Of a stretch of DNA of 64,000 nucleotides, positions 8,456 to 20,647 are shown piece after piece (within the stretch, counting starts at the first letter, position 1; each line of letters begins with the position of its first letter). The notes under the pieces were generated by a model that was not told the origin of the DNA, ran no database searches, and saw nothing but the letters and a program-made list of their open reading frames with translations. The stretch is from the IMG/VR virus record IMGVR_UViG_3300009180_000022. One strand, 5' to 3'. Position numbers and translations under genes: made by a program. Source of the stretch: a virus.

Positions 8456-9211
8456 ATGAGCAGACTAGCTAGAAAAAACATAAGAGAACTAAAAGAGACC
8501 GGTATAGTACTCGAGTTCGAAACAAAGCAAGTTAAGACTAACCTATTAATAAAACAATTTGAACCACTAACGTTAAATCAGGAATTAACGTTTAAAGCAT
8601 ATAATAAGAACAGAAATATTCTTTTACACGGACTTGCAGGTACTGGTAAAACATTCATGTCCTTGTATTTAAGTCTAAAAGAAGTTCTTGGCAAAAGTAA
8701 GTATAAAAAAATAATTATTGTAAGATCCGTAGTACCAACTAGAGACATGGGATTCTTACCTGGTACTCAAAAAGAGAAGACAAAGGTGTATGAGGCACCT
8801 TATCAGGCAGTATGCGCCGAGCTGTTTGGTAGAGGTGATGCGTATGAGGTACTAAAAGGTCGTGGAATAATTGAGTTTATTTCAACATCTTTTATTCGAG
8901 GCACAACGATAGGCAACTCAATCGTTATCGTTGATGAGGTTAATAATATGACCTTTCATGAACTAGACAGCGTAATAACTCGTCTAGGAAACAACAGTAA
9001 AATTTTACTGTGTGGAGATTTTAGGCAGAGTGATCTTATTAAGCAGAGTGATAAAAATGGCTTACGCCATTTTATGAATATCCTTGAAAAAATGGGCAGC
9101 TTTGAGCACATTGAATTTGAACAAGAAGACATTGTTAGATCAGGTCTTGTTAAGGAGTATATAATTGCTAAAGACAGGCTTGGCTATTCGTCAGGAACCC
9201 TTCAGGTATGA
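8456..9211 (+). CDS. phoH: PhoH-family ATPase
   Basis: GLAGTGKT Walker A, RDMGFLPG, FIRGTT, IVDE, GDFRQSD. Confidence 0.92.
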   Translation: MSRLARKNIRELKETGIVLEFETKQVKTNLLIKQFEPLTLNQELTFKAYNKNRNILLHGLAGTGKTFMSLYLSLKEVLGKSKYKKIIIVRSVVPTRDMGFLPGTQKEKTKVYEAPYQAVCAELFGRGDAYEVLKGRGIIEFISTSFIRGTTIGNSIVIVDEVNNMTFHELDSVITRLGNNSKILLCGDFRQSDLIKQSDKNGLRHFMNILEKMGSFEHIEFEQEDIVRSGLVKEYIIAKDRLGYSSGTLQV

Positions 9212-9857
9212 AGCACTCAAAGATTACGAGTTAAATACTGAAAATAAGAACGGGAAAAGGCACTACAATGTAGATGGTGAGCTTTTCCCGTCTGTTACAA
9301 CCGTTCTTTCATCCCTACCAAAACCAGGACTTGATGCCTGGAAAGCAAGAACGGGAGAGGCAGAGGCTGCAAAAATCATGAATGCAGCCGCCTCGCGAGG
9401 CACTAAAGCGCACAAGATGTGGGAAGAATACCTACGCAATGATGTTGACTTTAGCAAAGGTATGATGCCTTCGTCAATCATGCTTTTTAAACAACTTCAG
9501 CCATGGCTTGACCGGAACATTGACTTCCTGTACGGCAATGAGATAGCACTGTTCTCCAAGGTTCTCCGCACTGCTGGAAGGTGTGATGCCATCGCATCTG
9601 TCAACGGACGACCAGCTATTGTCGACTTCAAGACATCAACCAATCCTAAAAAAGAAGAATGGATTAGCAGTTATTACTACCAAGTAACGGCTTACGCTAT
9701 GATGGTTGAAGAGATGTATGGAATTGTAGTTGAGGATGCTTACATCCTTATTGCAGTAGAAGACGGAGATCCGCAAAGTTTCCCTATTCGTACCAGGCAC
9801 TACAAAGAAAAAGTAATCGAGATCTTCACTGAGTATAGCAGAAAGCAGTTGATTTAA
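9165..9857 (+). CDS. PD-(D/E)xK exonuclease (Cas4/AddB-like phage exonuclease)
   Basis: FPSVTTVLS, RGTKAH, AGRCD, IVDFKTS, QVTAYA. Confidence 0.85.
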   Translation: MLKTGLAIRQEPFRYEALKDYELNTENKNGKRHYNVDGELFPSVTTVLSSLPKPGLDAWKARTGEAEAAKIMNAAASRGTKAHKMWEEYLRNDVDFSKGMMPSSIMLFKQLQPWLDRNIDFLYGNEIALFSKVLRTAGRCDAIASVNGRPAIVDFKTSTNPKKEEWISSYYYQVTAYAMMVEEMYGIVVEDAYILIAVEDGDPQSFPIRTRHYKEKVIEIFTEYSRKQLI

Positions 9858-9877
9858 TTACGAGTTGATCCTATAAT
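9849..9877 (+). promoter_or_regulatory. sigma70-type early promoter
   Basis: TTGATT-17bp-TATAAT; member of a repeated AGTTGATTTAATT promoter family. Confidence 0.75.
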
Positions 9878-9884
9878 AGGGTAT

Positions 9885-10406
9885 ATGAAAACATCAACAC
9901 GTAAAGCAAAAGAGCCGCAACTGCCCGGTACCGATAGAATCATGCTTAAGTTCGATCTTAAGAAAGGCATGTCTATCAATCGTGCAATTGTATTCTGTAG
10001 TGCATATCTTGATAGTCAACCTGATCCGACTAAGGCGTCTAATGCCGTAGTTCAGACCCTTGAGATTCCGTTTCCTTTCTTTAAGGAACCTTCTCAGGCA
10101 AAGATCATGGCATTAGCCGCTATCGAACAGCTACTACTAATGGATGTATTTGATCCAGTAGCAGCCGGTGAAATCGCTAATGCTAAATTTGAACGTATTC
10201 AGAAGAAGATGCCTTATGCCGTTCAAGGTGAGGCTATCAATAAGTCACGCAGGGGTGCTAAGAGGGATGTTGCACGTCAGATTTACATGGAGAACAGGGA
10301 CATGGATGAGAAGCTTGTCATTGCCCAGGTAGCCAAGGAACTTGACATTTCACCACAGAATGCATACACTTACATTTATCTGGTAAAAAAGTCCCTTAAG
10401 ATCTAA
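9885..10406 (+). CDS. hypothetical protein with C-terminal HTH-like motif
   Basis: VIAQVAKELDISPQNAYTYIY; similar motif in ORF 20093. Confidence 0.7.
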   Translation: MKTSTRKAKEPQLPGTDRIMLKFDLKKGMSINRAIVFCSAYLDSQPDPTKASNAVVQTLEIPFPFFKEPSQAKIMALAAIEQLLLMDVFDPVAAGEIANAKFERIQKKMPYAVQGEAINKSRRGAKRDVARQIYMENRDMDEKLVIAQVAKELDISPQNAYTYIYLVKKSLKI

Positions 10407-10411
10407 AGCAG

Positions 10412-10440
10412 TGGCTTTTTTTAGCTATATACCTTACAAT
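10412..10440 (+). promoter_or_regulatory. sigma70-type promoter upstream of leader ORF
   Basis: TGGCTT-17bp-TACAAT, preceded by CAG like other family members. Confidence 0.5.
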
Positions 10441-10467
10441 CAATTTTTAGGTCAACAAGACAAAGAT

Positions 10468-10560
10468 ATGCTACATTGCACGAAACCATCCACACAGATT
10501 AATTGGAGTCTCCGCTCAGATGAGGCCGGATATCCTTTTGGTTCGGGGTCTTGTAAGTAG
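10468..10560 (+). CDS. candidate attenuator leader peptide MLHCTKPSTQINWSLRSDEAGYPFGSGSCK
   Basis: 30 sense codons, all different; 3' end overlaps antiterminator strand; SD weak. Confidence 0.55.
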   Translation: MLHCTKPSTQINWSLRSDEAGYPFGSGSCK

Positions 10561-10581
10561 TAAATCTACCACTTTAACAAG

Positions 10582-10614
10582 AACCCCAGGACTAAACAAC
10601 CTGGGGTTTTTTTT
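10582..10614 (+). terminator. rho-independent terminator (attenuator) upstream of tRNA island
   Basis: AACCCCAGG-9nt-CCTGGGGTT with T8 tract. Confidence 0.85.
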
Positions 10615-10635
10615 CATCAGCTGTTTAAAAAACGG

Positions 10636-10664
10636 TTGATTTAATTAACAAGGTACCATATAAT
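10636..10664 (+). promoter_or_regulatory. sigma70-type promoter, tRNA island P1
   Basis: TTGATT-17bp-TATAAT with A-tract upstream. Confidence 0.8.
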
Positions 10665-10723: not shown

Positions 10724-10752
10724 TTGATTTAATTAAAGGTGTATCATATAAT
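10724..10752 (+). promoter_or_regulatory. sigma70-type promoter, tRNA island P2 (near-duplicate of P1, 88-nt period)
   Basis: TTGATT-17bp-TATAAT followed by TGGTACAT as in P1. Confidence 0.8.
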
Positions 10753-10806
10753 TGGTACATCTGCTGAGAAATCAGCAACGTTCTTTAAAAAATTAGGTAG
10801 TTATTT

Positions 10807-10881
10807 ACTGCGTTCGTCTATCGGTTAGGACATCAGGTTTTCAACCTGAGAAGACGAGTTCGACTCTCGTACGCAGTACCA
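10807..10881 (+). tRNA. tRNA-Glu(TTC)
   Basis: cloverleaf; TCAGG-TT-TTC-AA-CCTGA; ACCA. Confidence 0.9.
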
Positions 10882-10977
10882 TATTAGAATACATTGCTTG
10901 CCCGTCCGCAAAAGACGAGGTAAACTATTAAAGAAACAGGTTCGAATCCTGGGGACTGGTAGTGTGTTCTAATATGG
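10879..10977 (+). ncRNA. long-stem-enclosed element with internal T-loop hairpin
   Basis: CCATATTAGAATACATTGC pairs with GTAGTGTGTTCTAATATGG; internal CAGG-TTCGAAT-CCTG. Confidence 0.45.
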
Positions 10978-10982
10978 TTTAT

Positions 10983-11058
10983 GTGCGTGTGCACCGAATG
11001 GCTAGGTAGCGGATTGCAAATCCGTATTATGCAGGTTCGAGTCCTGTCACGCACTCCA
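10983..11058 (+). tRNA. tRNA-Cys(GCA)
   Basis: GCGGA-TT-GCA-AA-TCCGT; U73; CCA. Confidence 0.9.
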
Positions 11059-11067
11059 CAAGAATTT

Positions 11068-11142
11068 GGGCTGTTGGTATAACTGGGAACACAGTGGCCT
11101 TGCAAGTCACAGTTGGGAGTTCGATTCTCCCACGGTCCACCA
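11068..11142 (+). tRNA. tRNA-Ala(TGC)
   Basis: G3:U70 pair; GTGGC-CT-TGC-AA-GTCAC; ACCA. Confidence 0.9.
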
Positions 11143-11144
11143 AA

Positions 11145-11330
11145 TCTCGTTACTACTTTCGTTAAAGTAGCGTTTGATTAGCGATAGAGATCCGGTGGCA
11201 GAAAACCGTTAGCGAGGTCAAACTCAGGCTCTGATAGGCAGAATCTCAACTGCACACAGACTAAAGAATAAATGGAGATGGACAGAGTAACTTCTCAATC
11301 AAGGGCTGGCGTGGAACCCAGTAGCTTGTA
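11145..11330 (+). ncRNA. putative structured ncRNA of unknown class
   Basis: ~185 nt between tRNAs with several hairpins (CTACTTT/AAAGTAG, CGGT/ACCG, GCAG/CTGC); no credible ORF. Confidence 0.4.
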
Positions 11331-11338
11331 CTTATTTT

Positions 11339-11413
11339 GGCTCGTTCATATAATGGTCATTATCGCGGATTGTCTATCCGTAGATGGGAGTTCGATTCTC
11401 CCACGAGTCGCCA
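11339..11413 (+). tRNA. tRNA-Asp(GTC)
   Basis: GCGGA-TT-GTC-TA-TCCGT; G73; CCA. Confidence 0.88.
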
Positions 11414-11419
11414 GTTTTT

Positions 11420-11495
11420 GCCGAGATAGCTCAGTTGGTAGAGCACCTGTCTGAAGAACAGGGTGTGGGCGGTTCGATCCCGTCTCTCGGTACCA
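11420..11495 (+). tRNA. tRNA-Phe(GAA)
   Basis: canonical D arm AGCTCAGTTGGTAGAGC; CCTGT-CT-GAA-GA-ACAGG; ACCA. Confidence 0.9.
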
Positions 11496-11507
11496 GAATA
11501 TTTTTTT

Positions 11508-11581
11508 CCTCCGTTAGCTCAATGGTAGAGCAATCGGCTGATAACCGATAGACAGAAGTTCAATTCTTCTACAGAGGACCA
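11508..11581 (+). tRNA. tRNA-Ile(GAT)
   Basis: ATCGG-CT-GAT-AA-CCGAT; ACCA. Confidence 0.9.
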
Positions 11582-11589
11582 AGTTTTAT

Positions 11590-11673
11590 GGAGGGGATGC
11601 TCTAATGGTAGGGCAGCAGGCTGTAACCCTGTGGCCTTCGGGCAAGTAGGTTCGATCCCTACCCACTCCACCA
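11590..11673 (+). tRNA. tRNA-Tyr(GTA)
   Basis: GCAGG-CT-GTA-AC-CCTGT; long variable arm; ACCA. Confidence 0.9.
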
Positions 11674-11678
11674 AGTTT

Positions 11679-11739
11679 TAGGATGCGTTCAGCAAATAAT
11701 ACATTAGACTTCTAATCTAAACCGTAAAAAAGCATCCTG
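11679..11739 (+). ncRNA. Y-RNA-like family copy 1, carrying an isolated anticodon stem-loop (UCU)
   Basis: TAGGATGC/GCATCCTG stem, GTTCAGCAA motif; insert TTAGA-CT-TCT-AA-TCTAA. Confidence 0.6.
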
Positions 11740-11748
11740 TTATTTTAT

Positions 11749-11825
11749 GCCCTGGTGACGGAATTGGTATACGTACTGGTCTTAGAAACCAGGTTCTGGG
11801 AGTTCAAGTCTCCCCTAGGGCACCA
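11749..11825 (+). tRNA. tRNA-Leu(TAG), short variable arm
   Basis: CTGGT-CT-TAG-AA-ACCAG; ACCA. Confidence 0.85.
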
Positions 11826-11882
11826 ATAAAGCTCGCCTTGATTGATGGCGTATAATGAGATAAATTGTCAATCACAAATTTC

Positions 11883-11957
11883 GCGTCTTTAGTAAAATGG
11901 AGATTACACAACGCTACGAACGTTGGAGTGGGAGTTCGATTCTCTCAGGACGCACCA
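11883..11957 (+). tRNA. tRNA-Arg(ACG)
   Basis: CAACG-CT-ACG-AA-CGTTG; ACCA. Confidence 0.9.
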
Positions 11958-11966
11958 GATTTTTAT

Positions 11967-12040
11967 GCGGGGTTCGTATAGTGGTAATACCTTAGCCTTC
12001 CAAGCTAAAGCGAGGAGTTCGATTCTCCTACCCCGCTCCA
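11967..12040 (+). tRNA. tRNA-Gly(TCC)
   Basis: TTAGC-CT-TCC-AA-GCTAA; U73; CCA. Confidence 0.9.
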
Positions 12041-12046
12041 TAGTTT

Positions 12047-12110
12047 TAGGATAGCAACAGCAAACATTAAAAATCTTTTCTTGAAAAAAAAGCCAAAAAA
12101 TGCTATCCTG
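12047..12110 (+). ncRNA. Y-RNA-like family copy 2
   Basis: TAGGATAGCA/TGCTATCCTG stem, ACAGCAA motif; weak insert hairpin with loop CT-TGA-AA. Confidence 0.55.
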
Positions 12111-12118
12111 TTTTATTT

Positions 12119-12192
12119 GCCCTTTTAGTATAATGGTATTACACCTGTTTTGTAATCAGGTTACGGCAGTTCGATTCTGTCATGGGGCACCA
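12119..12192 (+). tRNA. tRNA-Thr(TGT)
   Basis: CCTGT-TT-TGT-AA-TCAGG; ACCA. Confidence 0.85.
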
Positions 12193-12199
12193 TAGTTTT

Positions 12200-12273
12200 C
12201 TCGGTGTGGCGTAATGGTAGCGTTCGTGGTTTGGGGCCATGAGGCGAAGGTTCGATTCCTTCTACCGAGACCA
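12200..12273 (+). tRNA. tRNA-Pro(TGG)
   Basis: CGTGG-TT-TGG-GG-CCATG; C1:G72, A73; CCA. Confidence 0.88.
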
Positions 12274-12276
12274 AGT

Positions 12277-12492
12277 TTTGTAAGTGTTAGCAAGAGAAGC
12301 CATGCTGCCTAGGTTTGTTCGAACAACTGAAGCAGTAAAAGGATGCGGGTTCGATGCCCGGCTGGTCGCTTGAATGGGTCTGGCATACAATAGGTGTATC
12401 ATCTGGAGGACTCCCAAGTAACGTACCGAATCCCGTCCGGACTAGTGCAATCGGGTGAATGGTTCCTATAATGTGGAGGAACAACTTACAAA
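12277..12492 (+). ncRNA. Y-RNA-like family copy 3 (large ~215 nt, divergent)
   Basis: TTTGTAAGT-GTT/AAC-A-ACTTACAAA closing stem followed by AGCAA; internal CGGG-TTCGATG-CCCG T-loop hairpin. Confidence 0.45.
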
Positions 12493-12502
12493 TTCAATTT
12501 AT

Positions 12503-12581
12503 TCCGTAGAACCCGAGCATGGTGCATGGGCTTGACTGTTAATCAATGTTTAGCTGGGATCGTTACCCAGATACGGAGCCA
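12503..12581 (+). tRNA. tRNA-Asn(GTT), atypical (extended D arm, T loop ATCGTTA)
   Basis: TTGA-CT-GTT-AA-TCAA; G73; CCA. Confidence 0.7.
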
Positions 12582-12588
12582 ATTTTAT

Positions 12589-12662
12589 TCGGGCGTTGTG
12601 TAATGGTAGCACAACAGACTTTGACTCTGTTAGCGTAGGTTCGATCCCTACCGCCCGTACCA
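12589..12662 (+). tRNA. tRNA-Gln(TTG)
   Basis: ACAGA-CT-TTG-AC-TCTGT; ACCA. Confidence 0.9.
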
Positions 12663-12668
12663 AAGTAG

Positions 12669-12697
12669 TTGATTTTTATTGCAGAAGAGTTTATAAT
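12669..12697 (+). promoter_or_regulatory. sigma70-type promoter
   Basis: TTGATT-17bp-TATAAT. Confidence 0.75.
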
Positions 12698-12717
12698 TTA
12701 ATTTTAAAGGAAACGAC

Positions 12718-12741
12718 ATGAAACGTTCAGGTAAACGATAG
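12718..12741 (+). CDS. candidate mini leader ORF MKRSGKR
   Basis: SD AAGGA upstream; stop codon abuts hairpin 12741-12780; precedes two tRNA-Lys genes. Confidence 0.35.
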   Translation: MKRSGKR

Positions 12742-12806
12742 TGTCAACTTTAGATCCCATGTATGGTCTTAAGTTGGCACGTAAAAGAAAATTTAATACG
12801 TAACAA

Positions 12807-12882
12807 CCACTCGTGGCGTTAATGGTAGCGTACATGACTCTTAATCATCGAGGTCTGAGTTCGAATCTCAGCGAGTGGACCA
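12807..12882 (+). tRNA. tRNA-Lys(CTT)
   Basis: ATGA-CT-CTT-AA-TCAT; ACCA. Confidence 0.88.
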
Positions 12883-12887
12883 TACAT

Positions 12888-12963
12888 GGGATTGTAGTGA
12901 AATGGTTATCACAGCAGACTTTTAATCTGCCAATTCTGGGTTCGAGTCCCAGCAGTCCCACCA
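12888..12963 (+). tRNA. tRNA-Lys(TTT)
   Basis: GCAGA-CT-TTT-AA-TCTGC; ACCA. Confidence 0.9.
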
Positions 12964-13045
12964 TATAAAAACACATTCTAAAACATAAAGATTTAGGATC
13001 ATCATGGGGTACTTTCAGCTCATCCCCGAGTGTGTTTCTATATGG
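12961..13045 (+). ncRNA. long-stem-enclosed element, similar ends to 10879-10977
   Basis: CCATATAAAAACACATTC pairs with GAGTGTGTTTCTATATGG. Confidence 0.4.
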
Positions 13046-13058
13046 TAAAGGTATTATA

Positions 13059-13310
13059 ATGTTTAGAGTGTATTATACAGACCCATTGAGTGGTCAAGCT
13101 CATGGGCACGATTTAGAATTGTTGACGGAAGCGTTGAGATATACAGAAGGATTCCGAAAGCTAGGAATGTCATTCGTGACAATGGTTTCTGAGAATCCTG
13201 ATTCTGTCGGTAAAGCTGGAGTTGATTCAATCGTCAATGGAGTATGTCCTGATGGTGTTGCATACGATTGGAATAAAGCCAGCCGTATTGGACGAGCAAA
13301 GAAAAAGTAA
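13059..13310 (+). CDS. hypothetical protein
   Basis: SD AAGG before ATG 13059; FVTMVSENPDSVGKAGVD. Confidence 0.65.
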   Translation: MFRVYYTDPLSGQAHGHDLELLTEALRYTEGFRKLGMSFVTMVSENPDSVGKAGVDSIVNGVCPDGVAYDWNKASRIGRAKKK

Positions 13311-13321
13311 AACTTCTTAGG

Positions 13322-13395
13322 GTTGGTCTTAGTGTTAGCGGTTAGCACCCCGGGTTGTGATTCCGGTAGGATGGATTCGAATTCCATAGGCCACC
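13322..13395 (+). tRNA. tRNA-His(GTG), no encoded CCA
   Basis: G-1:C73; CCGGG-TT-GTG-AT-TCCGG; flanked by inverted repeat AAAACTTCTTAGGG/CCCTAAGAAGTTTT. Confidence 0.8.
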
Positions 13396-13408
13396 CCTAA
13401 GAAGTTTT

Positions 13409-13483
13409 CTCGCTGTCGTATAATGGATAATACGACTCACTCCTAACGAGTAAATAGGGGTTCGATTCCCTTCGGCGGGACCA
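13409..13483 (+). tRNA. tRNA-Arg(CCT)
   Basis: ACTCA-CT-CCT-AA-CGAGT; ACCA. Confidence 0.85.
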
Positions 13484-13490
13484 AGGATAC

Positions 13491-13566
13491 GGATGATTAG
13501 CTCAGTTGGTAGAGCACCGCCTCGACATGGCGAAGGTCAGTGGCTCGAGTCCACTATCATCCACCA
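13491..13566 (+). tRNA. tRNA-Val(GAC), with C33 and C54 variants
   Basis: CGCC-TC-GAC-AT-GGCG; canonical D arm; ACCA. Confidence 0.8.
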
Positions 13567-13599
13567 TTAATAAATACTCGTTTATATCTAGGAGATAAA

Positions 13600-13944
13600 A
13601 TGGCTGATTACGTAGATTACATGTTAAGGTTCGATAGTAAAGAACAAGCTGAAAGCGCGCTTGTTGAGTGGGGGTTTGCCCGTAGGTTTAAACCATCAGA
13701 TTTTCACGGTGAAGTTATTGTTGGAATACCCCCGCACGCTCTTGATGTTATTGGTATAATTCAAGTTCCTGGGGAAGCACCTCCTCCTACTGATGACATT
13801 ACAGTTGTAATAGCTGAATATCATATAGACATCTCGTTTGTTGAATTACCAGGGTATCATATTAATCTTCGAACAGTGGATAATTATCCAGAGCTCGAAC
13901 CGTACAGAGTATTTCCGGCCAACCCACTAAGGCAGTGGGCGTAG
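13600..13944 (+). CDS. hypothetical protein (possible tail-fibre-associated small protein)
   Basis: SD AGGAG; ALDVIGII...GYHINLR...PANPLRQWA; AATAAATA late-like box upstream. Confidence 0.6.
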   Translation: MADYVDYMLRFDSKEQAESALVEWGFARRFKPSDFHGEVIVGIPPHALDVIGIIQVPGEAPPPTDDITVVIAEYHIDISFVELPGYHINLRTVDNYPELEPYRVFPANPLRQWA

Positions 13945-13955
13945 TAAGTTTTTTT

Positions 13956-14044
13956 GGAGAGTAATGCAGCGGGGATGGTCCTGCGACTGGCCTTGAAAAC
14001 CAGGTTCTCAGAAATGGGATGGGGTTCGACTCCTCTGCTCTCCG
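13956..14044 (+). tRNA. tRNA-Ser(TGA), no encoded CCA
   Basis: GGAGAGT/GCTCTCC, G73; CT-TGA-AA loop; long variable arm. Confidence 0.75.
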
Positions 14045-14087
14045 CCCTTGAGTCAAAGTCAAGACTCGAACGATTATAAATAAGTGT

Positions 14088-14738
14088 ATGTATTACACTG
14101 TTTATAAAACGACAAATAAGATTAATGGCAAGATCTATATTGGATCGCATAAGACCAGAAATCCTAATGACTCTTACCTAGGATCAGGTAAGTATTTAAA
14201 ACATGCCATAGAGAAGCATGGAGTACAGGCATTTACTAAAGAAGTATTGTTTGTGTTCGAGACTGCTGTAGAGATGTATGCTAAGGAAGCAGAGTTGGTA
14301 ACAAAAGAATTTCTTTCAGAAGAAAATACATACAACCTTAAGGTTGGAGGTTTTGGTGGATTTGATTATCTTAATAATTGGAAAGAAAATCCATCTCACT
14401 CTATGGAACATATGGTACGAATGTATAGGTTAGGAACAGCAGCACGCAATGCAGATCGTATTGAGCGATTTTCAAACACGTCATACAATCAAACCTGGGG
14501 GGAGATGTCCACGCGTAATCAGATACAACAGTACAGTGAAGGCAGAGTACCAGGAATGTTAGGTAAAATCCATAGTGCAGATACAAAACATAAAATTTCA
14601 ACTGCTAACTCGTTGAAACAACAAGGAACTAAAAATTCACAGTTTGGCACTGTATGGATTACTGACGGTATTAGCAATAAAAAGATAAAAAAAGGTTTAC
14701 ATATACCAACCGGTTGGTATAGAGGTAGAACAAAGTAA
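14088..14738 (+). CDS. GIY-YIG homing endonuclease (SegB-like) in tRNA island
   Basis: YTVYKTTNKINGKIYIGSH, YLGSG, YNLKVGGFGG, NUMOD3-like and WITDG C-terminal motifs; TATAAATA at 14075. Confidence 0.85.
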   Translation: MYYTVYKTTNKINGKIYIGSHKTRNPNDSYLGSGKYLKHAIEKHGVQAFTKEVLFVFETAVEMYAKEAELVTKEFLSEENTYNLKVGGFGGFDYLNNWKENPSHSMEHMVRMYRLGTAARNADRIERFSNTSYNQTWGEMSTRNQIQQYSEGRVPGMLGKIHSADTKHKISTANSLKQQGTKNSQFGTVWITDGISNKKIKKGLHIPTGWYRGRTK

Positions 14739-14758
14739 ACATATGCAGAATAAATCAG

Positions 14759-14787
14759 TTGCATTAATTACCGTAAAAGGTTATAAT
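14759..14787 (+). promoter_or_regulatory. sigma70-type promoter of the ncRNA + vWA protein unit
   Basis: TTGCAT-17bp-TATAAT. Confidence 0.7.
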
Positions 14788-14808
14788 TAATGCATAGTGA
14801 GTAAGTTT

Positions 14809-14991
14809 TAGGATCGGTACAGCAACAACACTAGCGGAGTCATATCCGCATCCGAACTGTTTCTAGATACCCTGTTATTAACTGGAGCCTTGATTGGCTT
14901 TGAAGGTAAATAACAACGCGAAAGCAAGGATTCTTTAGACGAACAGGAGTTTCGATTTCTCATGTAAATCAAAAAGTAGAAACCGATCCTG
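14809..14991 (+). ncRNA. Y-RNA-like family copy 4 (large insert)
   Basis: TAGGATCGGT/ACCGATCCTG stem, ACAGCAA motif; internal GCGGA/TCCGC hairpin and GAG-TTTCGATTT-CTC T-loop-like hairpin. Confidence 0.6.
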
Positions 14992-15007
14992 TTATATTTG
15001 AAAGATT

Positions 15008-15097
15008 TAGAGTAGGTTCAGCAAAACAAAACTAGCTGGTTCGATTCCAGCATTACGCTTCTGCGTGATGTGCCACGGTGGCAATCAAACTACTCTG
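15008..15097 (+). ncRNA. Y-RNA-like family copy 5, permuted tRNA mimic
   Basis: TAGAGTAG/CTACTCTG stem, GTTCAGCAA; T arm GCTGG-TTCGATT-CCAGC, loop-closed acceptor ATTACGC-TTCT-GCGTGAT, D-like TGCCA-CGG-TGGCA. Confidence 0.65.
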
Positions 15098-15104
15098 TTG
15101 TTTT

Positions 15105-15228
15105 TAGGTTAAGTTCCGCAAAACAAAATATGCTAATAGGAACTGAAAGACTGGTTCGATTCCAGCCAGGGCACGTAGTGTCTTGGTAGTGTAATGGTAG
15201 CACGTCAGTATGCAAAAAGTTTAACCTG
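15105..15228 (+). ncRNA. Y-RNA-like family copy 6, YrlA-type circularly permuted tRNA mimic
   Basis: TAGGTTAA/TTAACCTG stem, GTTCCGCAA; ACTGA/TCAGT stem encloses T arm, loop-closed acceptor CCAGGGCAC-GTA-GTGTCTTGG and D arm TA-GTGT-AATGGTA-GCAC. Confidence 0.7.
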
Positions 15229-15248
15229 TTGATTTGAAAGGAAATATT

Positions 15249-16688
15249 ATGTCAACATTCGTAGAAGCCGTAGTAAATCAAGAAGCCCGTACTGCCAATG
15301 GCATGAAGGCACGCAAGTCTACTGCTAACGCAGTCGTAGACCTATTCTACAACATCGGTGCATCACGTGGCAAGAACGTGATTCCAGCCTTCACCGCTGC
15401 ATTCGCAGAAGATAAGGCCCTTGCCCTGCGCGTTGCCGCATGGGCTCGTGATGTTCGTGGTGGTGCAGGTGAGCGTCAACTGTTTCGTGATATTCTAGTA
15501 CACCTAGAACACAATGATCGCGCAGCAGCAAAGGCACTTGTTGCCAAGGTCCCAGAATTAGGACGTTGGGATGACTTGTTCGTTTTCAATTCTAAGGAAA
15601 TGAAGACTGCAGCATATACATTGCTTGGTAACGCTTTGCGTGAAAAGAATGGACTTGCTGCTAAGTGGACACCTCGTCAAGGTAAGATTGCAGCTGAAGT
15701 TCGTGAGTTCTTCGGTATGTCGCCAAAGTTCTATCGTAAGTCCTTAGTTGAAATGACCAAGGTAGTGGAATCGCAAATGTGCGCAAAAGACTGGAATGAG
15801 ATTAACTTCTCGCATGTTCCATCTGTAGCTGCATCGCGTTACAAGAAGGCATTTAACCGTAACACTCCAGCTTATGCAGCATATGTTGCAGAGTTGATGA
15901 AGGATCCAAAGGATCGTACAATAGAGGTTAAGGTTAATGCTGGCGCAGTATACCCATATGATGTACTGAAAGGTCGCATCTCTGGTTATGGTATGTCGTT
16001 TGACAAGACAGAATTGGACTTGATCCAAAAGCAATGGGAAGCACTACCTAACTTTGTTGGGGATGCAAACATTCTGCCTTTGGTTGACGTTTCTGGTTCT
16101 ATGACTTGCGCAGCAGGCGGGGTTGGATCGAAGTCTAAGCTGACTTGTTTGGAAGTTGCAGTCTCTCTGGGATTGTATCTTGCAGATAAGAATAAGGGTA
16201 AGTTCAAGGATACGTTCCTGACTTTCTCTAGCAAGCCAGAGTTGGTGACTTTGAAGGGTAACATTAATGAGAAGATTAGCCAAATGATTTCTTCTGATTG
16301 GGGAATGTCTACTGACTTGATTCGTGCGTTCGATAAGATCCTTAGCGTAGCAGTTAATGGTAAAGTACCTAATAGCGAGATGCCAGAAATGTTGCTTATC
16401 CTTTCGGACATGCAATTTAACCAATGCATTAAGCACGATGACTCGGCAATCGAAATGATTACACGTAAGTACGAAGCAGCAGGATACGCCTTACCAAAGG
16501 TTGTGTTCTGGAACTTGAATGCATCATACGGCAATGTGCCGGTGAAGTTTGACAAGTCTGGCACTGCATTGGTTTCGGGGTTCTCTCCAGCCATTGTTAA
16601 GCCTCTGCTATCTGGTGATATGGAAGACTTTTCGCCAGCTGCTGTGATGATGAAAACCATCATGGATGACCGTTATGCTGTAATCTAA
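15249..16688 (+). CDS. DUF2828-like helical domain + vWA (MIDAS) protein, Ro60/TROVE-like architecture
   Basis: RDVRGGAGER, GRWDDL, LAAKWTPR, DVSGSM MIDAS, WGMSTD, LSDMQF, VVFWNL, LVSGFSP. Confidence 0.75.
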   Translation: MSTFVEAVVNQEARTANGMKARKSTANAVVDLFYNIGASRGKNVIPAFTAAFAEDKALALRVAAWARDVRGGAGERQLFRDILVHLEHNDRAAAKALVAKVPELGRWDDLFVFNSKEMKTAAYTLLGNALREKNGLAAKWTPRQGKIAAEVREFFGMSPKFYRKSLVEMTKVVESQMCAKDWNEINFSHVPSVAASRYKKAFNRNTPAYAAYVAELMKDPKDRTIEVKVNAGAVYPYDVLKGRISGYGMSFDKTELDLIQKQWEALPNFVGDANILPLVDVSGSMTCAAGGVGSKSKLTCLEVAVSLGLYLADKNKGKFKDTFLTFSSKPELVTLKGNINEKISQMISSDWGMSTDLIRAFDKILSVAVNGKVPNSEMPEMLLILSDMQFNQCIKHDDSAIEMITRKYEAAGYALPKVVFWNLNASYGNVPVKFDKSGTALVSGFSPAIVKPLLSGDMEDFSPAAVMMKTIMDDRYAVI

Positions 16689-16696
16689 GCATGACA

Positions 16697-16721
16697 GAGG
16701 ACTCGAAAGAGTCCTCATTTT
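16697..16721 (+). terminator. rho-independent terminator
   Basis: GAGGACTC-GAAA-GAGTCCTC followed by ATTTT. Confidence 0.7.
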
Positions 16722-16755
16722 GAAGTGTACTGGTAGTTCATTTCAAAATGAAAAA

Positions 16756-16841
16756 GGAAGACTCCCATAATGGTATTGGAGCGGCTTGCTAAGCCGTCGA
16801 CCGGAAACGGTTTCGGGGTTCGAGTCCCCGGTCTTCCGCCA
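16756..16841 (+). tRNA. tRNA-Ser(GCT)
   Basis: GCGGC-TT-GCT-AA-GCCGT; long variable arm; G73; CCA. Confidence 0.88.
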
Positions 16842-16876
16842 ATCATAAGTAGATTTTTTAAACAAAAGGTTATATA

Positions 16877-17041
16877 ATGAGATCAAAGACGAACAGTAAC
16901 TTTAAGCTTACAAAACGTACTAAGACAATCTTGGCAATAGTTAAGTTTAGTGATCCGCATGTGCGTGGTGCGTTTAAAAGCATGATGATTGATGCACAGG
17001 TAGCAGCAGCAATGCCGGCACCTAAGAAAGAAACGAAGTAA
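16877..17041 (+). CDS. small hypothetical protein (54 aa)
   Basis: MRSKTNSNFKLTKRTKTILAIVKFSDPHVRGAFKSMMIDAQ...; fills gap between tRNAs. Confidence 0.5.
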   Translation: MRSKTNSNFKLTKRTKTILAIVKFSDPHVRGAFKSMMIDAQVAAAMPAPKKETK

Positions 17042-17048
17042 AGAATAT

Positions 17049-17124
17049 TGGCATATAGCTCAGTCGGTAGAGCGTTTGACTGTTAATCAAAATGTCCCTG
17101 GTTCGAGCCCAGGTTTGCCAGCCA
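17049..17124 (+). tRNA. tRNA-Asn(GTT)
   Basis: TTTGA-CT-GTT-AA-TCAAA; G73; CCA. Confidence 0.92.
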
Positions 17125-17131
17125 AAATTAT

Positions 17132-17210
17132 CGCGGAGTAGGGGAGTCTAGCCGTCCCCGGAAGTCTCATAAGCTTCAGATCGCAGGTGCGAATCCTGCC
17201 TCCGCAACCA
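17132..17210 (+). tRNA. tRNA-Met(CAT), initiator-like
   Basis: C1:A72 mismatch; CT-CAT-AA loop; ACCA. Confidence 0.8.
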
Positions 17211-17215
17211 ACATT

Positions 17216-17290
17216 GGTCGTGTGGCGTAGATGGATGCGCACCGCCCTCATAAGGCGAGGAGGTTGGATCGATACCAACCATGACCACCA
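17216..17290 (+). tRNA. tRNA-CAT (Met or Ile2)
   Basis: CGCC-CT-CAT-AA-GGCG; atypical T loop ATCGATA; ACCA. Confidence 0.75.
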
Positions 17291-17296
17291 TACGAT

Positions 17297-17848
17297 ATGA
17301 GCAACTTTAAATTTATTGAGCAAGATGTAAATATAGCAAAGATCTTAAAGCAGGTATTAGATAATCCTGCTGACTGGCAAGCTGTATCTTCTTACAAAAA
17401 CATTGAAGGTGATTTAAATCCTTATGGGTTTCTTCCACTCGTTATGGCCATGGTTAAGCATAAAGGTGATGATCCAAAGAATACAGAGATGCAATCAAGG
17501 ACTCCTTTGTATGACAAGTATACAGAGATTCGTAAGTGGTTAAGGCAGCGTAATATAACGACTACATCCCGGGCTGCTTTCTTTAGGTTAAAACCGGGCG
17601 GGACTGTTGGTAGGCATATTGATGAAGGAACTTACTACCTTACAAGGGATAGATTTCACCTATCCCTACAAGGCAGTTATAAGTATACTGTTGATGAAGA
17701 AGTACATATAATTAAACCAGGAACGTTTTTTTGGTTTAATAACAAGAAGTATCACGAAGCAGAGAACGTTAGTGATATAGATCGTGTTACGTTTGTATTC
17801 GATGTACCGCATTCGCTGCGACCGATACATAAGTTATTAAAAGTTTAA
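17297..17848 (+). CDS. Asp/Asn beta-hydroxylase-like 2OG-Fe(II) dioxygenase
   Basis: LKPGGTVGRHID (HxD), RFHLSL, WFNNKKYHEAEN, RVTFVFD. Confidence 0.8.
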   Translation: MSNFKFIEQDVNIAKILKQVLDNPADWQAVSSYKNIEGDLNPYGFLPLVMAMVKHKGDDPKNTEMQSRTPLYDKYTEIRKWLRQRNITTTSRAAFFRLKPGGTVGRHIDEGTYYLTRDRFHLSLQGSYKYTVDEEVHIIKPGTFFWFNNKKYHEAENVSDIDRVTFVFDVPHSLRPIHKLLKV

Positions 17849-17849
17849 T

Positions 17850-17924
17850 GCCTGGTTAGCTCAGGGGGAGAGCGGCTGCCTTACACGCAGCGGGTCGGCG
17901 GTTCGAAACCGTCACCAGGTACCA
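17850..17924 (+). tRNA. tRNA-Val(TAC)
   Basis: GCTGC-CT-TAC-AC-GCAGC; ACCA. Confidence 0.92.
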
Positions 17925-17938
17925 AATAGGAGTTTGCA

Positions 17939-18073
17939 ATGGCTAATGTGAAGCAAGGCAATTTAACCAAGAGTCCACAATGGTGGAAACATCTAAAGGA
18001 CTTTAAGCGTTTCTTTTGGAAGGCAGAGCGCAAAGCACAACAAAAAGACATTAAGGGAAGATTGTATGAGTGA
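17939..18073 (+). CDS. small hypothetical protein (44 aa)
   Basis: SD AGGAG; MANVKQGNLTKSPQWWKHLKDFKRFFWKAER... Confidence 0.6.
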   Translation: MANVKQGNLTKSPQWWKHLKDFKRFFWKAERKAQQKDIKGRLYE

Positions 18074-18254
18074 TGGTGGTAAGGGGGCTGCACCAAGACC
18101 ATACAGTGTAAGCAATCAAGAATATGCTGAACGTTGGGATGCTATTTTCCAGCGTGATCAACGCGAAAAAGCTCTTGACGAGATGGTAAGAATAAGTGAA
18201 GAATTAGGCCTATATGATATGGATCCTTCTGAGAATCCATTGATTAAAAAATAA
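18066..18254 (+). CDS. small hypothetical protein
   Basis: MSDGGKGAAPRPYSVS...WDAIF; overlaps upstream stop. Confidence 0.65.
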   Translation: MSDGGKGAAPRPYSVSNQEYAERWDAIFQRDQREKALDEMVRISEELGLYDMDPSENPLIKK

Positions 18255-18255
18255 T

Positions 18256-18330
18256 GTATCTTTAGTGTTAATGGCAGCACGACAGTCTCCAAAACTGATA
18301 GTGAGGGTTCGAGTCCTTCAAGATACGCCA
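18256..18330 (+). tRNA. tRNA-Trp(CCA)
   Basis: CAGT-CT-CCA-AA-ACTG; G73; CCA. Confidence 0.88.
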
Positions 18331-18419
18331 AGTATGATGGTTGAGTCGCACTCAACTAATCTTAGGGATATACGTTAGCCTAAGTTAAAATAAAAAAAAT
18401 CGTGTACAGATTTATTAAC

Positions 18420-18493
18420 GCGTGTGTAGTTTAGTGGTAAAATCAAACGTTGCCAACGTTTAGTTGAGGGTTCGATTCCCTCCACCCGCACCA
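18420..18493 (+). tRNA. tRNA-Gly(GCC)
   Basis: AAACG-TT-GCC-AA-CGTTT; ACCA. Confidence 0.85.
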
Positions 18494-18505
18494 TTGAAAG
18501 CCACT

Positions 18506-18763
18506 ATGAAACTTGTTCCGATTAAAAATAGAATTGCTGTCATCAAGCTTAAGAATAAACTTGAAACAGAATCCGGTATTGTACTTACCAAGAGTACAGG
18601 TGAGGTTGATAGAGCCAAGGTTATCTCTATAGGACCTGATGTTATGACAGTTTCAGAGAACGATGTGCTATTGATCGATTGGAACAAAGCATCCATGACC
18701 AAGATTGATGATAATCCTATCTACCTTATCAGCGAAGATGATGTCGTCGCTGTATACGAATAA
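18506..18763 (+). CDS. groES: GroES-like co-chaperonin
   Basis: LVPIKNRIAV, TESGIVL mobile loop, AKVISIGPDV, LISEDDVVAV. Confidence 0.85.
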   Translation: MKLVPIKNRIAVIKLKNKLETESGIVLTKSTGEVDRAKVISIGPDVMTVSENDVLLIDWNKASMTKIDDNPIYLISEDDVVAVYE

Positions 18764-18778
18764 CTACCTAATTTCAAC

Positions 18779-18852
18779 GCTCTCATAGTATAACGGCAAT
18801 ACACGTCCTTGGTAAGGACGAGCACCAAGTTCGATTCTTGGTGGGAGCACCA
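18779..18852 (+). tRNA. tRNA-Thr(GGT)
   Basis: CGTCC-TT-GGT-AA-GGACG; ACCA. Confidence 0.9.
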
Positions 18853-18853
18853 G

Positions 18854-18882
18854 TTGCATTTTTTTCATAAGATAGCTATAAT
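18854..18882 (+). promoter_or_regulatory. sigma70-type promoter
   Basis: TTGCAT-17bp-TATAAT. Confidence 0.65.
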
Positions 18883-18896
18883 AACATATGTTCAAG

Positions 18897-18973
18897 GCGC
18901 CGGTAGCTTAGAGGCCCAAAGCAGCGGACTCATAATCCGTTGATCGAGAGTTCGAATCTCTCCCGTCGCACCA
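18897..18973 (+). tRNA. tRNA-CAT (Ile2 or Met)
   Basis: GCGGA-CT-CAT-AA-TCCGT; ACCA. Confidence 0.82.
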
Positions 18974-18979
18974 TTTATT

Positions 18980-19141
18980 ATGATTAAAGAAAAAAAGACT
19001 GTTACTGTTAAAGAACTTAGAAAATTAAATAAGTGGCCGTTCCCCTTATGGGAGAATGGTAAGATGGTAATAACTGAAGTTAAAGCAAAGAGAGTCCCTA
19101 AACCAGACTGGTACAAAGAAGCAGGCCCAGCACCTTTTTGA
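18980..19141 (+). CDS. small hypothetical protein (53 aa)
   Basis: MIKEKKTVTVKELRKLNKWPFPLW...; fills gap before next gene. Confidence 0.5.
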   Translation: MIKEKKTVTVKELRKLNKWPFPLWENGKMVITEVKAKRVPKPDWYKEAGPAPF

Positions 19142-19148
19142 GAATGAT

Positions 19149-19628
19149 ATGAGAAAACTAGATTTAACCGAAGTAAAGAATTTTATCCAAGCCCAAAGCC
19201 TGGAAACAAAGATCTATATCGGCGCCGATTCAGAACGATACCAAAAAGTAATTGATGGACGCAATCAATGGTTTGCCGATTACATTTTAGTTGTGGTTGT
19301 TCATATTGATGGATGCCATGGCTGTAAGATCTTTGGTGAAGTGCAGACTGAACGTGACTACGATGCTAAGGCTAGTCGTCCTTCTACACGTCTTATGACC
19401 GAGGTATACAAGGTTGCTGAGTTGTTCCTTAAGATGGAAGACGTGCTTGATGGTCGGGATGTGGAGGTGCATCTTGATATTAATCCTAATGAGATGTACA
19501 CTAGTAGCATAGTGGTACAGCAAGCAGTCGGCTATATCAAAGGTGTGTGCAATATTACTCCTATGGTTAAGCCAAATGCGTTTGCAGCTTCTTATGCTGC
19601 CGACAGGTTTAAGTCAGTAATGGCTTAA
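19149..19628 (+). CDS. RNase H-like YkuK/DUF458 family protein
   Basis: IYIGADS, RLMTEV, EVHLDIN, KPNAFAASYAAD. Confidence 0.8.
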   Translation: MRKLDLTEVKNFIQAQSLETKIYIGADSERYQKVIDGRNQWFADYILVVVVHIDGCHGCKIFGEVQTERDYDAKASRPSTRLMTEVYKVAELFLKMEDVLDGRDVEVHLDINPNEMYTSSIVVQQAVGYIKGVCNITPMVKPNAFAASYAADRFKSVMA

Positions 19629-19638
19629 TGGATAAGCT

Positions 19639-19722
19639 GCGAGTGTGGTGGAACGGTATACACAGGGGACTTAAAATCCCCCGCTGAAAGGCATGCGGGT
19701 TCGAGTCCCGCCACTCGCACCA
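19639..19722 (+). tRNA. tRNA-Leu(TAA)
   Basis: GGGGA-CT-TAA-AA-TCCCC; long variable arm; ACCA. Confidence 0.92.
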
Positions 19723-19758: not shown

Positions 19759-20022
19759 ATGAAACTTTCTGTACTAGAGCGTCATAATCTCATAGAGATG
19801 ATTGAGACGCATACCTTCTACGGTATACCACTAAACACAATCGAGCCAGAAATCCTAGATGAAATAGACACTAGGGAAGCTCAAATTCTCTACATAGTTG
19901 CAAGCATGATCGGGTGGGAAATTCGTGACCAGGAGTCATTCGAGATTTTTCCCTTTGAAGCTGAGAATTACCTCAAAAAATTCCGTAAAAATCCCAGTGA
20001 AAAAAGTGAAAAAAACAGTTGA
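19759..20022 (+). CDS. hypothetical protein
   Basis: SD AAGGAG before ATG 19759. Confidence 0.55.
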   Translation: MKLSVLERHNLIEMIETHTFYGIPLNTIEPEILDEIDTREAQILYIVASMIGWEIRDQESFEIFPFEAENYLKKFRKNPSEKSEKNS

Positions 20023-20047
20023 TTTAATTTCGTAATTACGTTATAAT
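20019..20047 (+). promoter_or_regulatory. sigma70-type early promoter
   Basis: TTGATT-17bp-TATAAT with A-rich UP element. Confidence 0.8.
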
Positions 20048-20434: not shown

Positions 20435-20622
20435 GATTTAGTTCAATGAGAATGATGCAGCATTGTTATCAATTAGAGGAAGATGAGATGGTCAAGGTCG
20501 CTGGCCAGCTCATATACGAAACTGATTTGGATCACGATCAGATTATCGATCGGTTTTCGGAGCTTTATGGTGAAGAAAACCTCTATATCGTAGAACAGAT
20601 TCTTGACGAAGAAAACAGTTGA
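20431..20622 (+). CDS. hypothetical acidic protein
   Basis: ATGA overlap. Confidence 0.6.
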   Translation: MRFSSMRMMQHCYQLEEDEMVKVAGQLIYETDLDHDQIIDRFSELYGEENLYIVEQILDEENS

Positions 20623-20647
20623 TTTATTTTCGTGATTAATCTATAAT
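20619..20647 (+). promoter_or_regulatory. sigma70-type early promoter
   Basis: TTGATT-17bp-TATAAT. Confidence 0.75.

Follow-up and report, generated by a model that had tools for sequence, protein, structure and literature searches.

At the head of a long array of transfer RNA (tRNA) genes in the 64,000-nucleotide (nt) virus record IMGVR_UViG_3300009180_000022 of IMG/VR (hereafter the window, meaning that whole stretch of DNA) lies a short leader with its own small open reading frame (ORF), which is probably a ribosome-mediated transcription attenuator of a kind whose ORF samples all 20 amino acids. This reading comes from the comparison of at least 123 unique leaders with a shared layout: a sigma-70 promoter, an ORF of 30-55 codons, a stop codon in the apex of an antiterminator hairpin (P1), a P1 3' foot that doubles as the 5' foot of an intrinsic terminator, and then a tRNA array. 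This anatomy, its conservation, the amino-acid completeness of the ORF, the dual complementarity of the P1 foot and the link to tRNA arrays can be read directly from the leaders. The reasons for which phages carry tRNA genes, and the ways in which they use them, have been under debate for decades. The initial annotation of this DNA had proposed that the leader senses a shortage of any aminoacyl-tRNA, and the 123-leader comparison strongly supports the core of that idea, but not two of its particulars, the non-redundancy of the leader codons and an upstream ACAAGAC element.

In the window, the leader ORF occupies 10468-10560 (+ strand, like all the leader features described here) and consists of an ATG, 29 more sense codons and a TAG at 10558-10560. 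As first described, all of its 30 codons are distinct, Ser is encoded by five of them, and 19 amino acids appear within the first 24 codons, Val being the missing one; all 19 are encoded by the 25 codons upstream of P1 (p = 4e-4). The probability of 30 non-repeating codons is 1.7e-4 under uniform usage, in agreement with the earlier birthday-problem estimate of about 1e-4, and under the window's own codon usage no such sequence was obtained (0/200,000 draws). Among the 253 window ORFs that start with ATG and have at least 30 codons, the leader is the sole one with 30 distinct codons. Upstream of it, at 10411-10440, lies a promoter with a good -10 (TACAAT, 10435-10440) and a poor -35 (GTGGCT, 10411-10416), which is absent from the lists of our consensus promoter scan. 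Its position is homologous to TTGACT/TTGATT-17 nt-TATAAT in three relatives (L001, L002 and L004; alignment A1); the promoter annotated at 10412-10440 is a weaker element than had been claimed. A strong promoter at 9849 also reads into the leader, and there is no terminator between the end of the upstream gene (10406) and the leader.

Two hairpins that share bases follow from the end of the ORF (energies calculated with ViennaRNA). The first, P1 (10545-10587, -16.6 kcal/mol), has its 5' arm GGGGTCTTGT (10545-10554) inside the ORF, complementary to the 3' arm ACAAGAACCCC (10577-10587) with one A bulged, and its inner stem, GTAG/CTAC, contains the stop codon, which comes after 13 nt of P1, 26 nt ahead of the terminator CCCC. 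The second is an intrinsic terminator (10582-10614, -14.7 kcal/mol) made of AACCCCAGG, the loop ACTAAACAA, CCTGGGGTT and a run of eight T (10607-10614). Its stem pairs CCCCAGG (10584-10590) with CCTGGGG (10600-10606) around a 9-nt loop and is extended by AA:TT from 10582; a simple terminator scan limited to loops of 8 nt therefore misses it. The CCCC at 10584-10587 belongs both to the terminator and to the P1 3' foot. The analysis thus bears out the strong terminator at 10582-10614 and the pairing of GGGGTCTTGT with a segment (10577-10587) overlapping the terminator 5' arm, both of which had been predicted. It does not bear out the role as anti-antiterminator proposed for ACAAGAC in the 5' untranslated region (10455-10461), a motif that is absent from L001, L002 and L004 (alignment A1).

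We collected relatives from IMG/VR phage contigs with two independent DNA patterns, the exact terminator hairpin of the window and a block of the coding region (the NDRTPE codons) applied without regard to the terminator. The hairpin occurs in 59 contigs, every one of which has an ORF of 30-52 codons ending 24-33 nt before it, and these gave 45 unique leaders. The coding-region pattern matched at least 120 contigs and added at least 78 further unique leaders whose terminator sequences differ. Altogether we obtained at least 123 unique leaders of 30-55 codons (median 47) from at least 120 freshwater phage contigs, jumbo phages included; counts over 123 leaders (45 + 78) refer to the set collected, and the size of the family is a lower bound. 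A homologous open ORF is present in all 123, so the ORF is conserved in relatives. Closest to the window are four IMG/VR relatives of the 173-residue protein encoded just upstream (61-66% identity), all with the same layout, in which the gene is followed by a consensus promoter, a 31-codon ORF, both hairpins and a tRNA-Glu heading a long array. Among other candidates, L009 proved to be a chance match, and L005-L008 are distant homologues of the upstream gene that have neither tRNAs nor the leader.

The surroundings of the leader are as regular as its interior. A promoter of the form TTGAY-N16-18-TANNNT is found within 140 nt upstream in 118 of the 123 leaders, and in 40 of those 118 the ATG comes only 6-10 nt past the -10, so that their messenger RNA (mRNA) would be leaderless or nearly leaderless. 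At the other end, 120/123 leaders have a G+C-rich terminator stem of 7-11 base pairs (bp) with a T-run. A tRNA array on the same strand follows every first-set element with enough flanking sequence (55/55), at a median distance of 263 nt (range 37-1659 nt), and none of the 55 has tRNAs on the opposite strand. The element stands at the very head of the array in 44/55 cases, and most of the others have a lone tRNA-Met upstream. In most cases the gap between terminator and array is devoid of sigma-70-like promoters.

The comparison indicates that the ORF is kept open by selection. Over 45 leaders, stop codons number 155 and 169 in the two alternative frames and 0 in that of the ORF; a single sequence would have an open frame by chance with a probability of 0.03-0.2. 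At 65-80% identity, substitutions are distributed evenly over the three codon positions (574/595/609) and non-synonymous changes far exceed synonymous ones; therefore translation, and not its product, seems to matter. An ordinary small phage gene, encoding a functional micro-protein of 30-55 residues, with hairpins that stabilize its mRNA and tRNAs adjacent by chance, would be another way to read an ORF conserved with promoter and terminator. A peptide motif (W ... SL.NDRTPE ... G) is indeed recognisable and near-identical pairs show a third-position excess (22/37/63). We nevertheless consider a micro-protein very unlikely. The substitutions at moderate divergence are not protein-like, the codons of the motif are conserved at synonymous sites too, which points to a constraint on the RNA, and a micro-protein would explain neither the dual complementarity of the P1 foot nor the strict position at the head of arrays. 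The small ORF region as a whole has synonymous sites far better conserved than those of the neighbouring 173-residue gene (alignment A1), which are saturated among the closest relatives, and this again shows an RNA-level constraint.

The property that is conserved, according to the same leaders, is the completeness of the amino-acid set. All 20 amino acids are encoded in 109 of the 123 leaders (36/45 in the first set and 73/78 in the second), and the remainder have 17-19. The same is true of only 0.6% of 1765 other small ORFs from the same loci, 2.1% of windows of the same length from real proteins and 3.6% of shuffled ORFs that stay open. A full set in about 45 residues is no known property of micro-proteins, and with controls at or below 3.6% this also counts against an ordinary small gene. 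In most of the 45 leaders tested, the set is already complete before the P1 5' arm. Per-leader p values are as low as 1e-5, the value for L001, where 25 codons encode all 20 amino acids. On average a leader has about 1.1-1.2 codons each for Cys, Trp, His and Tyr (123 leaders), and the position of Cys shifts between relatives while its presence is kept. When the peptides were clustered leniently, 6 of the 10 resulting groups had all 20 amino acids; since this clustering merged most leaders, we use it as a conservative bound only. Runs of codons for one amino acid do not occur, and this lack of the regulatory-codon repeats of classical attenuators is the main departure from them. The non-redundancy of codons, which the initial annotation took for the sensing feature, is peculiar to the window, its relatives having 21-28 distinct codons in the first 30 where 22 are expected.

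The competing hairpins are maintained throughout the family. P1 folds in every leader, with energies of -13 to -26 kcal/mol and a mean z of -5.5 versus shuffles, and the stop codon is always in its upper part, 24-33 nt before the terminator. The outer stem of P1 is 94% paired and has 19 compensatory cells versus 6.6 in shuffles. The P1 3' foot that is common to the terminator reads CCCC in the window and GGACCCC in most relatives. At one shared position, leaders with C have G as the P1 partner in 65/72 and G as the terminator partner in 72/72, and leaders with U have A as the P1 partner in 40/46 and, in the terminator, A in 18 and G in 28 of the 46. Together with covariation in the terminator stem, this agrees with the covariation of both stems that had been anticipated, the shared base covarying with its P1 partner and with its terminator partner. 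RNAalifold run on a MAFFT alignment of whole leaders recovered the terminator only, this alignment being out of structural register.

A further hairpin lies inside the ORF. In the window this hairpin, H1 (10500-10532), pairs TAATTGG with CCGGATA around an inner stem; it is imperfect there and is not part of the minimum-energy fold, and it is clear in the folds of L001 and L002. It is the short counterpart of a multi-tier hairpin of about 100 nt in larger leaders, where single-sequence folds turn the coding region into one long hairpin. The covariation of H1 in the large subfamily is modest, and pairing of H1 plus inner P1 reaches 60%, versus at most 50% in slid controls, a value understated by the register of the alignment. 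It is possible that H1 serves as an RNA-polymerase pause hairpin.

From this anatomy, together with established ribosome footprint sizes, we infer that the ORF is translated, that ribosome and polymerase are coupled, which way the response goes and what triggers it physiologically. Transcription would start at the leader promoter or read in from the upstream gene, and the short ORF would be translated. A ribosome keeping pace with RNA polymerase would reach the stop codon and melt the P1 5' arm; there it would cover about 12-13 nt beyond the stop, leaving the P1 3' foot free to pair with the downstream arm, so that the terminator would form and transcription would end. If the ribosome instead stalled with more than about 4 codons still to go before P1, P1 would fold first and withhold the terminator foot, and with P1 intact the polymerase would continue into the tRNA genes. 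Since each amino acid is encoded upstream of P1, often once or twice, a shortage of any single aminoacyl-tRNA would therefore raise tRNA transcription. Such a shortage might come from cleavage of host tRNA by anticodon nucleases, from host shut-off or from a mismatch in demand. Phage tRNAs replace host tRNAs destroyed by tRNA-targeting defence nucleases (PMC10264068, PMC11464382), which is consistent with array transcription induced by shortage. In more general terms, we lean towards seeing the leader as a "decoding-capacity meter", in which the speed of translation of an all-20 test message would set the transcription of the whole array.

Several observations weigh against the attenuator. The window leader has no Shine-Dalgarno sequence, its promoter has a poor -35, and it lacks Val, yet the array contains two tRNA-Val genes. 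Two strong consensus promoters (10636-10664 and 10724-10752, + strand, TTGATT-17-TATAAT) stand 3' of the window terminator and before the first tRNA. The two hairpins compete for no more than 4-7 bases, those of the terminator foot, and in the window the combination of terminator and inner P1 (-23.1 kcal/mol) exceeds full P1 (-19.4 kcal/mol) in stability; for antitermination, P1 must thus win kinetically, by forming first. We found in the leaders no conserved segment that pairs with the P1 5' arm, as segment 1 of trp does. With nothing to block P1 when translation is lacking, the leader would be a two-state switch with read-through as its untranslated default. Leader codons are not matched to the anticodons of the arrays: of the 1215 codons at the 27 loci that have 24 or more tRNAs, 966 can be read, versus 962 expected from synonymous usage. 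Some sequences are conserved more than the model needs, namely the Trp codon (UGG) and the NDRTPE codons at the nucleotide level, and the terminator loop CTAAAC, near-invariant across divergent leaders. Finally, no carrier was found among cultured phages by DNA, neighbouring protein, hairpin, leader peptide or whole leader.

One reading of the excess conservation is that a trans-acting factor sets a genuine P1/terminator switch and that the ORF is secondary. Such a factor might be a tRNA, as in T-box elements, a protein of the phage or its host, or an RNA, binding the CTAAAC loop or else the conserved UGG. The near-invariance of the loop in divergent leaders and CTAAAC-like motifs in some P1 apices speak for it, as do the nucleotide-level conservation of UGG and of the ..AUGAUCGNACACCAGAG.. 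block and the folding of the coding region into a long structured hairpin. Single-sequence folds place the NDRTPE block in the in-ORF hairpin, at the base of its 3' arm, a position that may account for the conservation of the block. A trans-acting factor leaves unexplained why the frame is open in every clade and why all 20 amino acids are retained upstream of P1 while the peptide drifts, and neither a T-box nor any other Rfam family matches. We thus hold a trans-acting switch to be unlikely, and prefer the ribosome as the element that sets the attenuator. As a separate observation, the terminator loop has the form ACTAAACA(A/C) (window 10591-10599), and CTAAAC recurs in the P1 apical loops of L018, L031, L015 and L038 and, as TAAACAT, in a structured RNA downstream of some leaders (see below). 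The loop may be a binding or processing site.

With its own promoter, an efficient-looking terminator, a conserved loop sequence and a highly structured transcript of about 150-200 nt, the terminated leader could itself be a stable small RNA, possibly of dual function like rnTrpL, that acts in trans, read-through being incidental. One lake metatranscriptome contig (Logan) matches 10483-10620 without a mismatch and then diverges, a weak hint in this direction since contigs show neither ends nor levels. Other RNA contigs (Logan) cover parts of the tRNAs only; carry-over of DNA is possible, and neither contig ends nor stretches lacking coverage are informative. A small RNA would leave the amino-acid completeness and the competing P1 pairing unexplained, and many relatives have an array for which we found no promoter other than that of the leader. 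As an explanation in place of the attenuator it appears very improbable indeed; it is, rather, compatible with one.

For the window copy alone, there is the further reading that it is a decaying remnant, now mainly the terminator of the upstream 173-residue gene. The degenerate -35, the lack of a Shine-Dalgarno sequence and the missing Val fit this, as do the open passage from the upstream gene, which ends at 10406, and the two consensus promoters after the terminator, which would have taken over. However, the window has kept P1, the terminator and the ORF intact, the last with 19 of the 20 amino acids within 25 codons (p = 4e-4), and the three closest relatives keep these elements although the neighbouring gene has diverged to 61-66% protein identity with saturated synonymous sites. 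Decay is thus very improbable for the window leader. A milder statement does apply to it: since a weak leader promoter is combined with two strong promoters after the terminator, the window attenuator would modulate its array and not gate it, a caveat raised from the beginning that holds. The downstream promoters are absent from L002, L004 and most of the family, and in L002 and L004 the terminator is separated from tRNA-Glu by 37 nt.

The array of the window (10807-19722, + strand) consists of 28 tRNA genes on the same strand (ARAGORN; Rfam), which together with a tRNA-Arg at 1856 cover all 20 amino acids, so the description of a full-set tRNA island behind the leader is correct. ARAGORN has no gene at 13956-14043, where Rfam places a tRNA-Sec-like match that stays under the gathering score (34.9 bits). 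A long-arm tRNA such as tRNA-Ser(TGA) is its probable identity; with such a tRNA, the decoding of the TCN codons of the leader would be complete. Directly 5' of tRNA-Glu is a conserved hairpin, GCTGAGAAATCAGC followed by CTCTTTAAAAA.TTA.GTAG.TTATTTACTG (window 10762-10806 and L001:3876-3929; alignment A1), which could be a 5' processing signal of the array. The TTGATT-17-TATAAT promoter type recurs in the window at 9849-9877, 10636-10664, 10724-10752, 12669-12697, 20019-20047 and 20619-20647; three copies are located inside or just before the tRNA island, and those at 10636 and 10724 carry an extended -35 block, TTGATTTAATTAA. The leader is preceded by a PhoH-like ATPase, a 230-residue ORF and the 173-residue gene (window 8456-9211 and 9165-9857). 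Among cultured phages, the best match of the PhoH-like ATPase is about 57% identical, and the 173-residue protein has no match.

Other structured RNAs accompany the arrays of relatives. A second conserved one, about 200-250 nt long, is found 3' of the terminator and 5' of the first tRNA in L029 (L029:5385-5650) and also in L015, L017, L019, L023, L024, L028, L031, L034, L035, L038, L044, L054, L060 and L062-L064, and is absent from the window. It has a closing stem GAGTGTG/CACACTC, a hairpin with the loop AACG(A/C)G and the blocks AACGGGCGGCCTACCGGATG and GGTAGCGTATTAAAGCA...TGCTTTAATACACAC; in L029 and L054 a tRNA-like T-arm is inserted, and no Rfam family matches it. In addition, relatives carry a GOLLD RNA (191 bits) that encloses a suppressor-type tRNA(TTA), as well as permuted or beta-type transfer-messenger RNA genes within or beside their tRNA arrays (L017:10590-11049; L060:2496-2854; L065:12849-13215; L032:11753-12256).

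If this reading is correct, the leader would be the first attenuator to respond to decoding capacity as a whole and not to a single amino acid, and the first case of leader-peptide control of tRNA genes. It would give phages a homeostatic supply of tRNAs and automatic replacement whenever a host defence cleaves any tRNA species, by means of a widespread device that evolves under selection for completeness rather than for sequence. Selection for the completeness of an amino-acid set is offered here as a design principle, and it makes short ORFs that annotation pipelines ignore recognisable by their compositional signature. The leader could serve as an annotation marker for the heads of phage tRNA arrays and, in synthetic biology, as a natural sensor part that reports a shortage of any aminoacyl-tRNA.

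Searches of Rfam, at E <= 10 for the window and L029 and at gathering level for 14 loci, gave no match to a leader RNA family, the best leader match in the window being Thr_leader with 19.0 bits versus a gathering score of 55 (E = 8.7), and our literature search found no description of leader-peptide control of tRNA genes. T-box riboswitches likewise have no Rfam match at E <= 10 in the window or L029. They resemble the leaders described here in tying a choice between terminator and antiterminator to the status of tRNA and in controlling genes of the translation apparatus; however, they bind uncharged tRNA directly, have no ORF, control synthetase and amino-acid genes and occur mainly in Firmicutes, whereas here an ORF is under selection. 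Leaders of the ermC/ermB, vmlR, msrD and toiL type are alike in that stalling within a short ORF remodels the RNA or blocks termination, and they respond to a general impairment of translation. Their stalling is specific for a drug and a peptide and their output is a resistance gene, while here the input would be aminoacyl-tRNA supply and the output tRNAs. Leaderless short ORFs with polycysteine in mycobacteria (bioRxiv 10.1101/834739) also are leaderless, amino-acid-responsive attenuators of the operon that follows, but they are bacterial and sense a single amino acid through consecutive Cys codons, in contrast to these phage leaders. The ilvGMEDA (Ile/Val/Leu) and thr (Thr/Ile) leaders sense several amino acids by mixed codons, but only two or three, with many repeats, where the phage leaders have all 20 with minimal repetition. 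The trpL, hisL, leuL and pheL attenuators share a short translated ORF, a terminator before the genes, an alternative hairpin with common bases and a stop codon whose position lets a terminating ribosome promote the terminator and a stalled one read-through. Unlike these, the present leaders are phage-borne, include many leaderless copies and have no anti-antiterminator of the segment 1 type that we could find; they contain one or a few codons for each of the 20 amino acids in place of runs for a single one, and the genes behind them are tRNAs and not biosynthetic enzymes. The logic would thus be that of trp/his attenuation, and what is new is the content of the sensor and the genes that it regulates.

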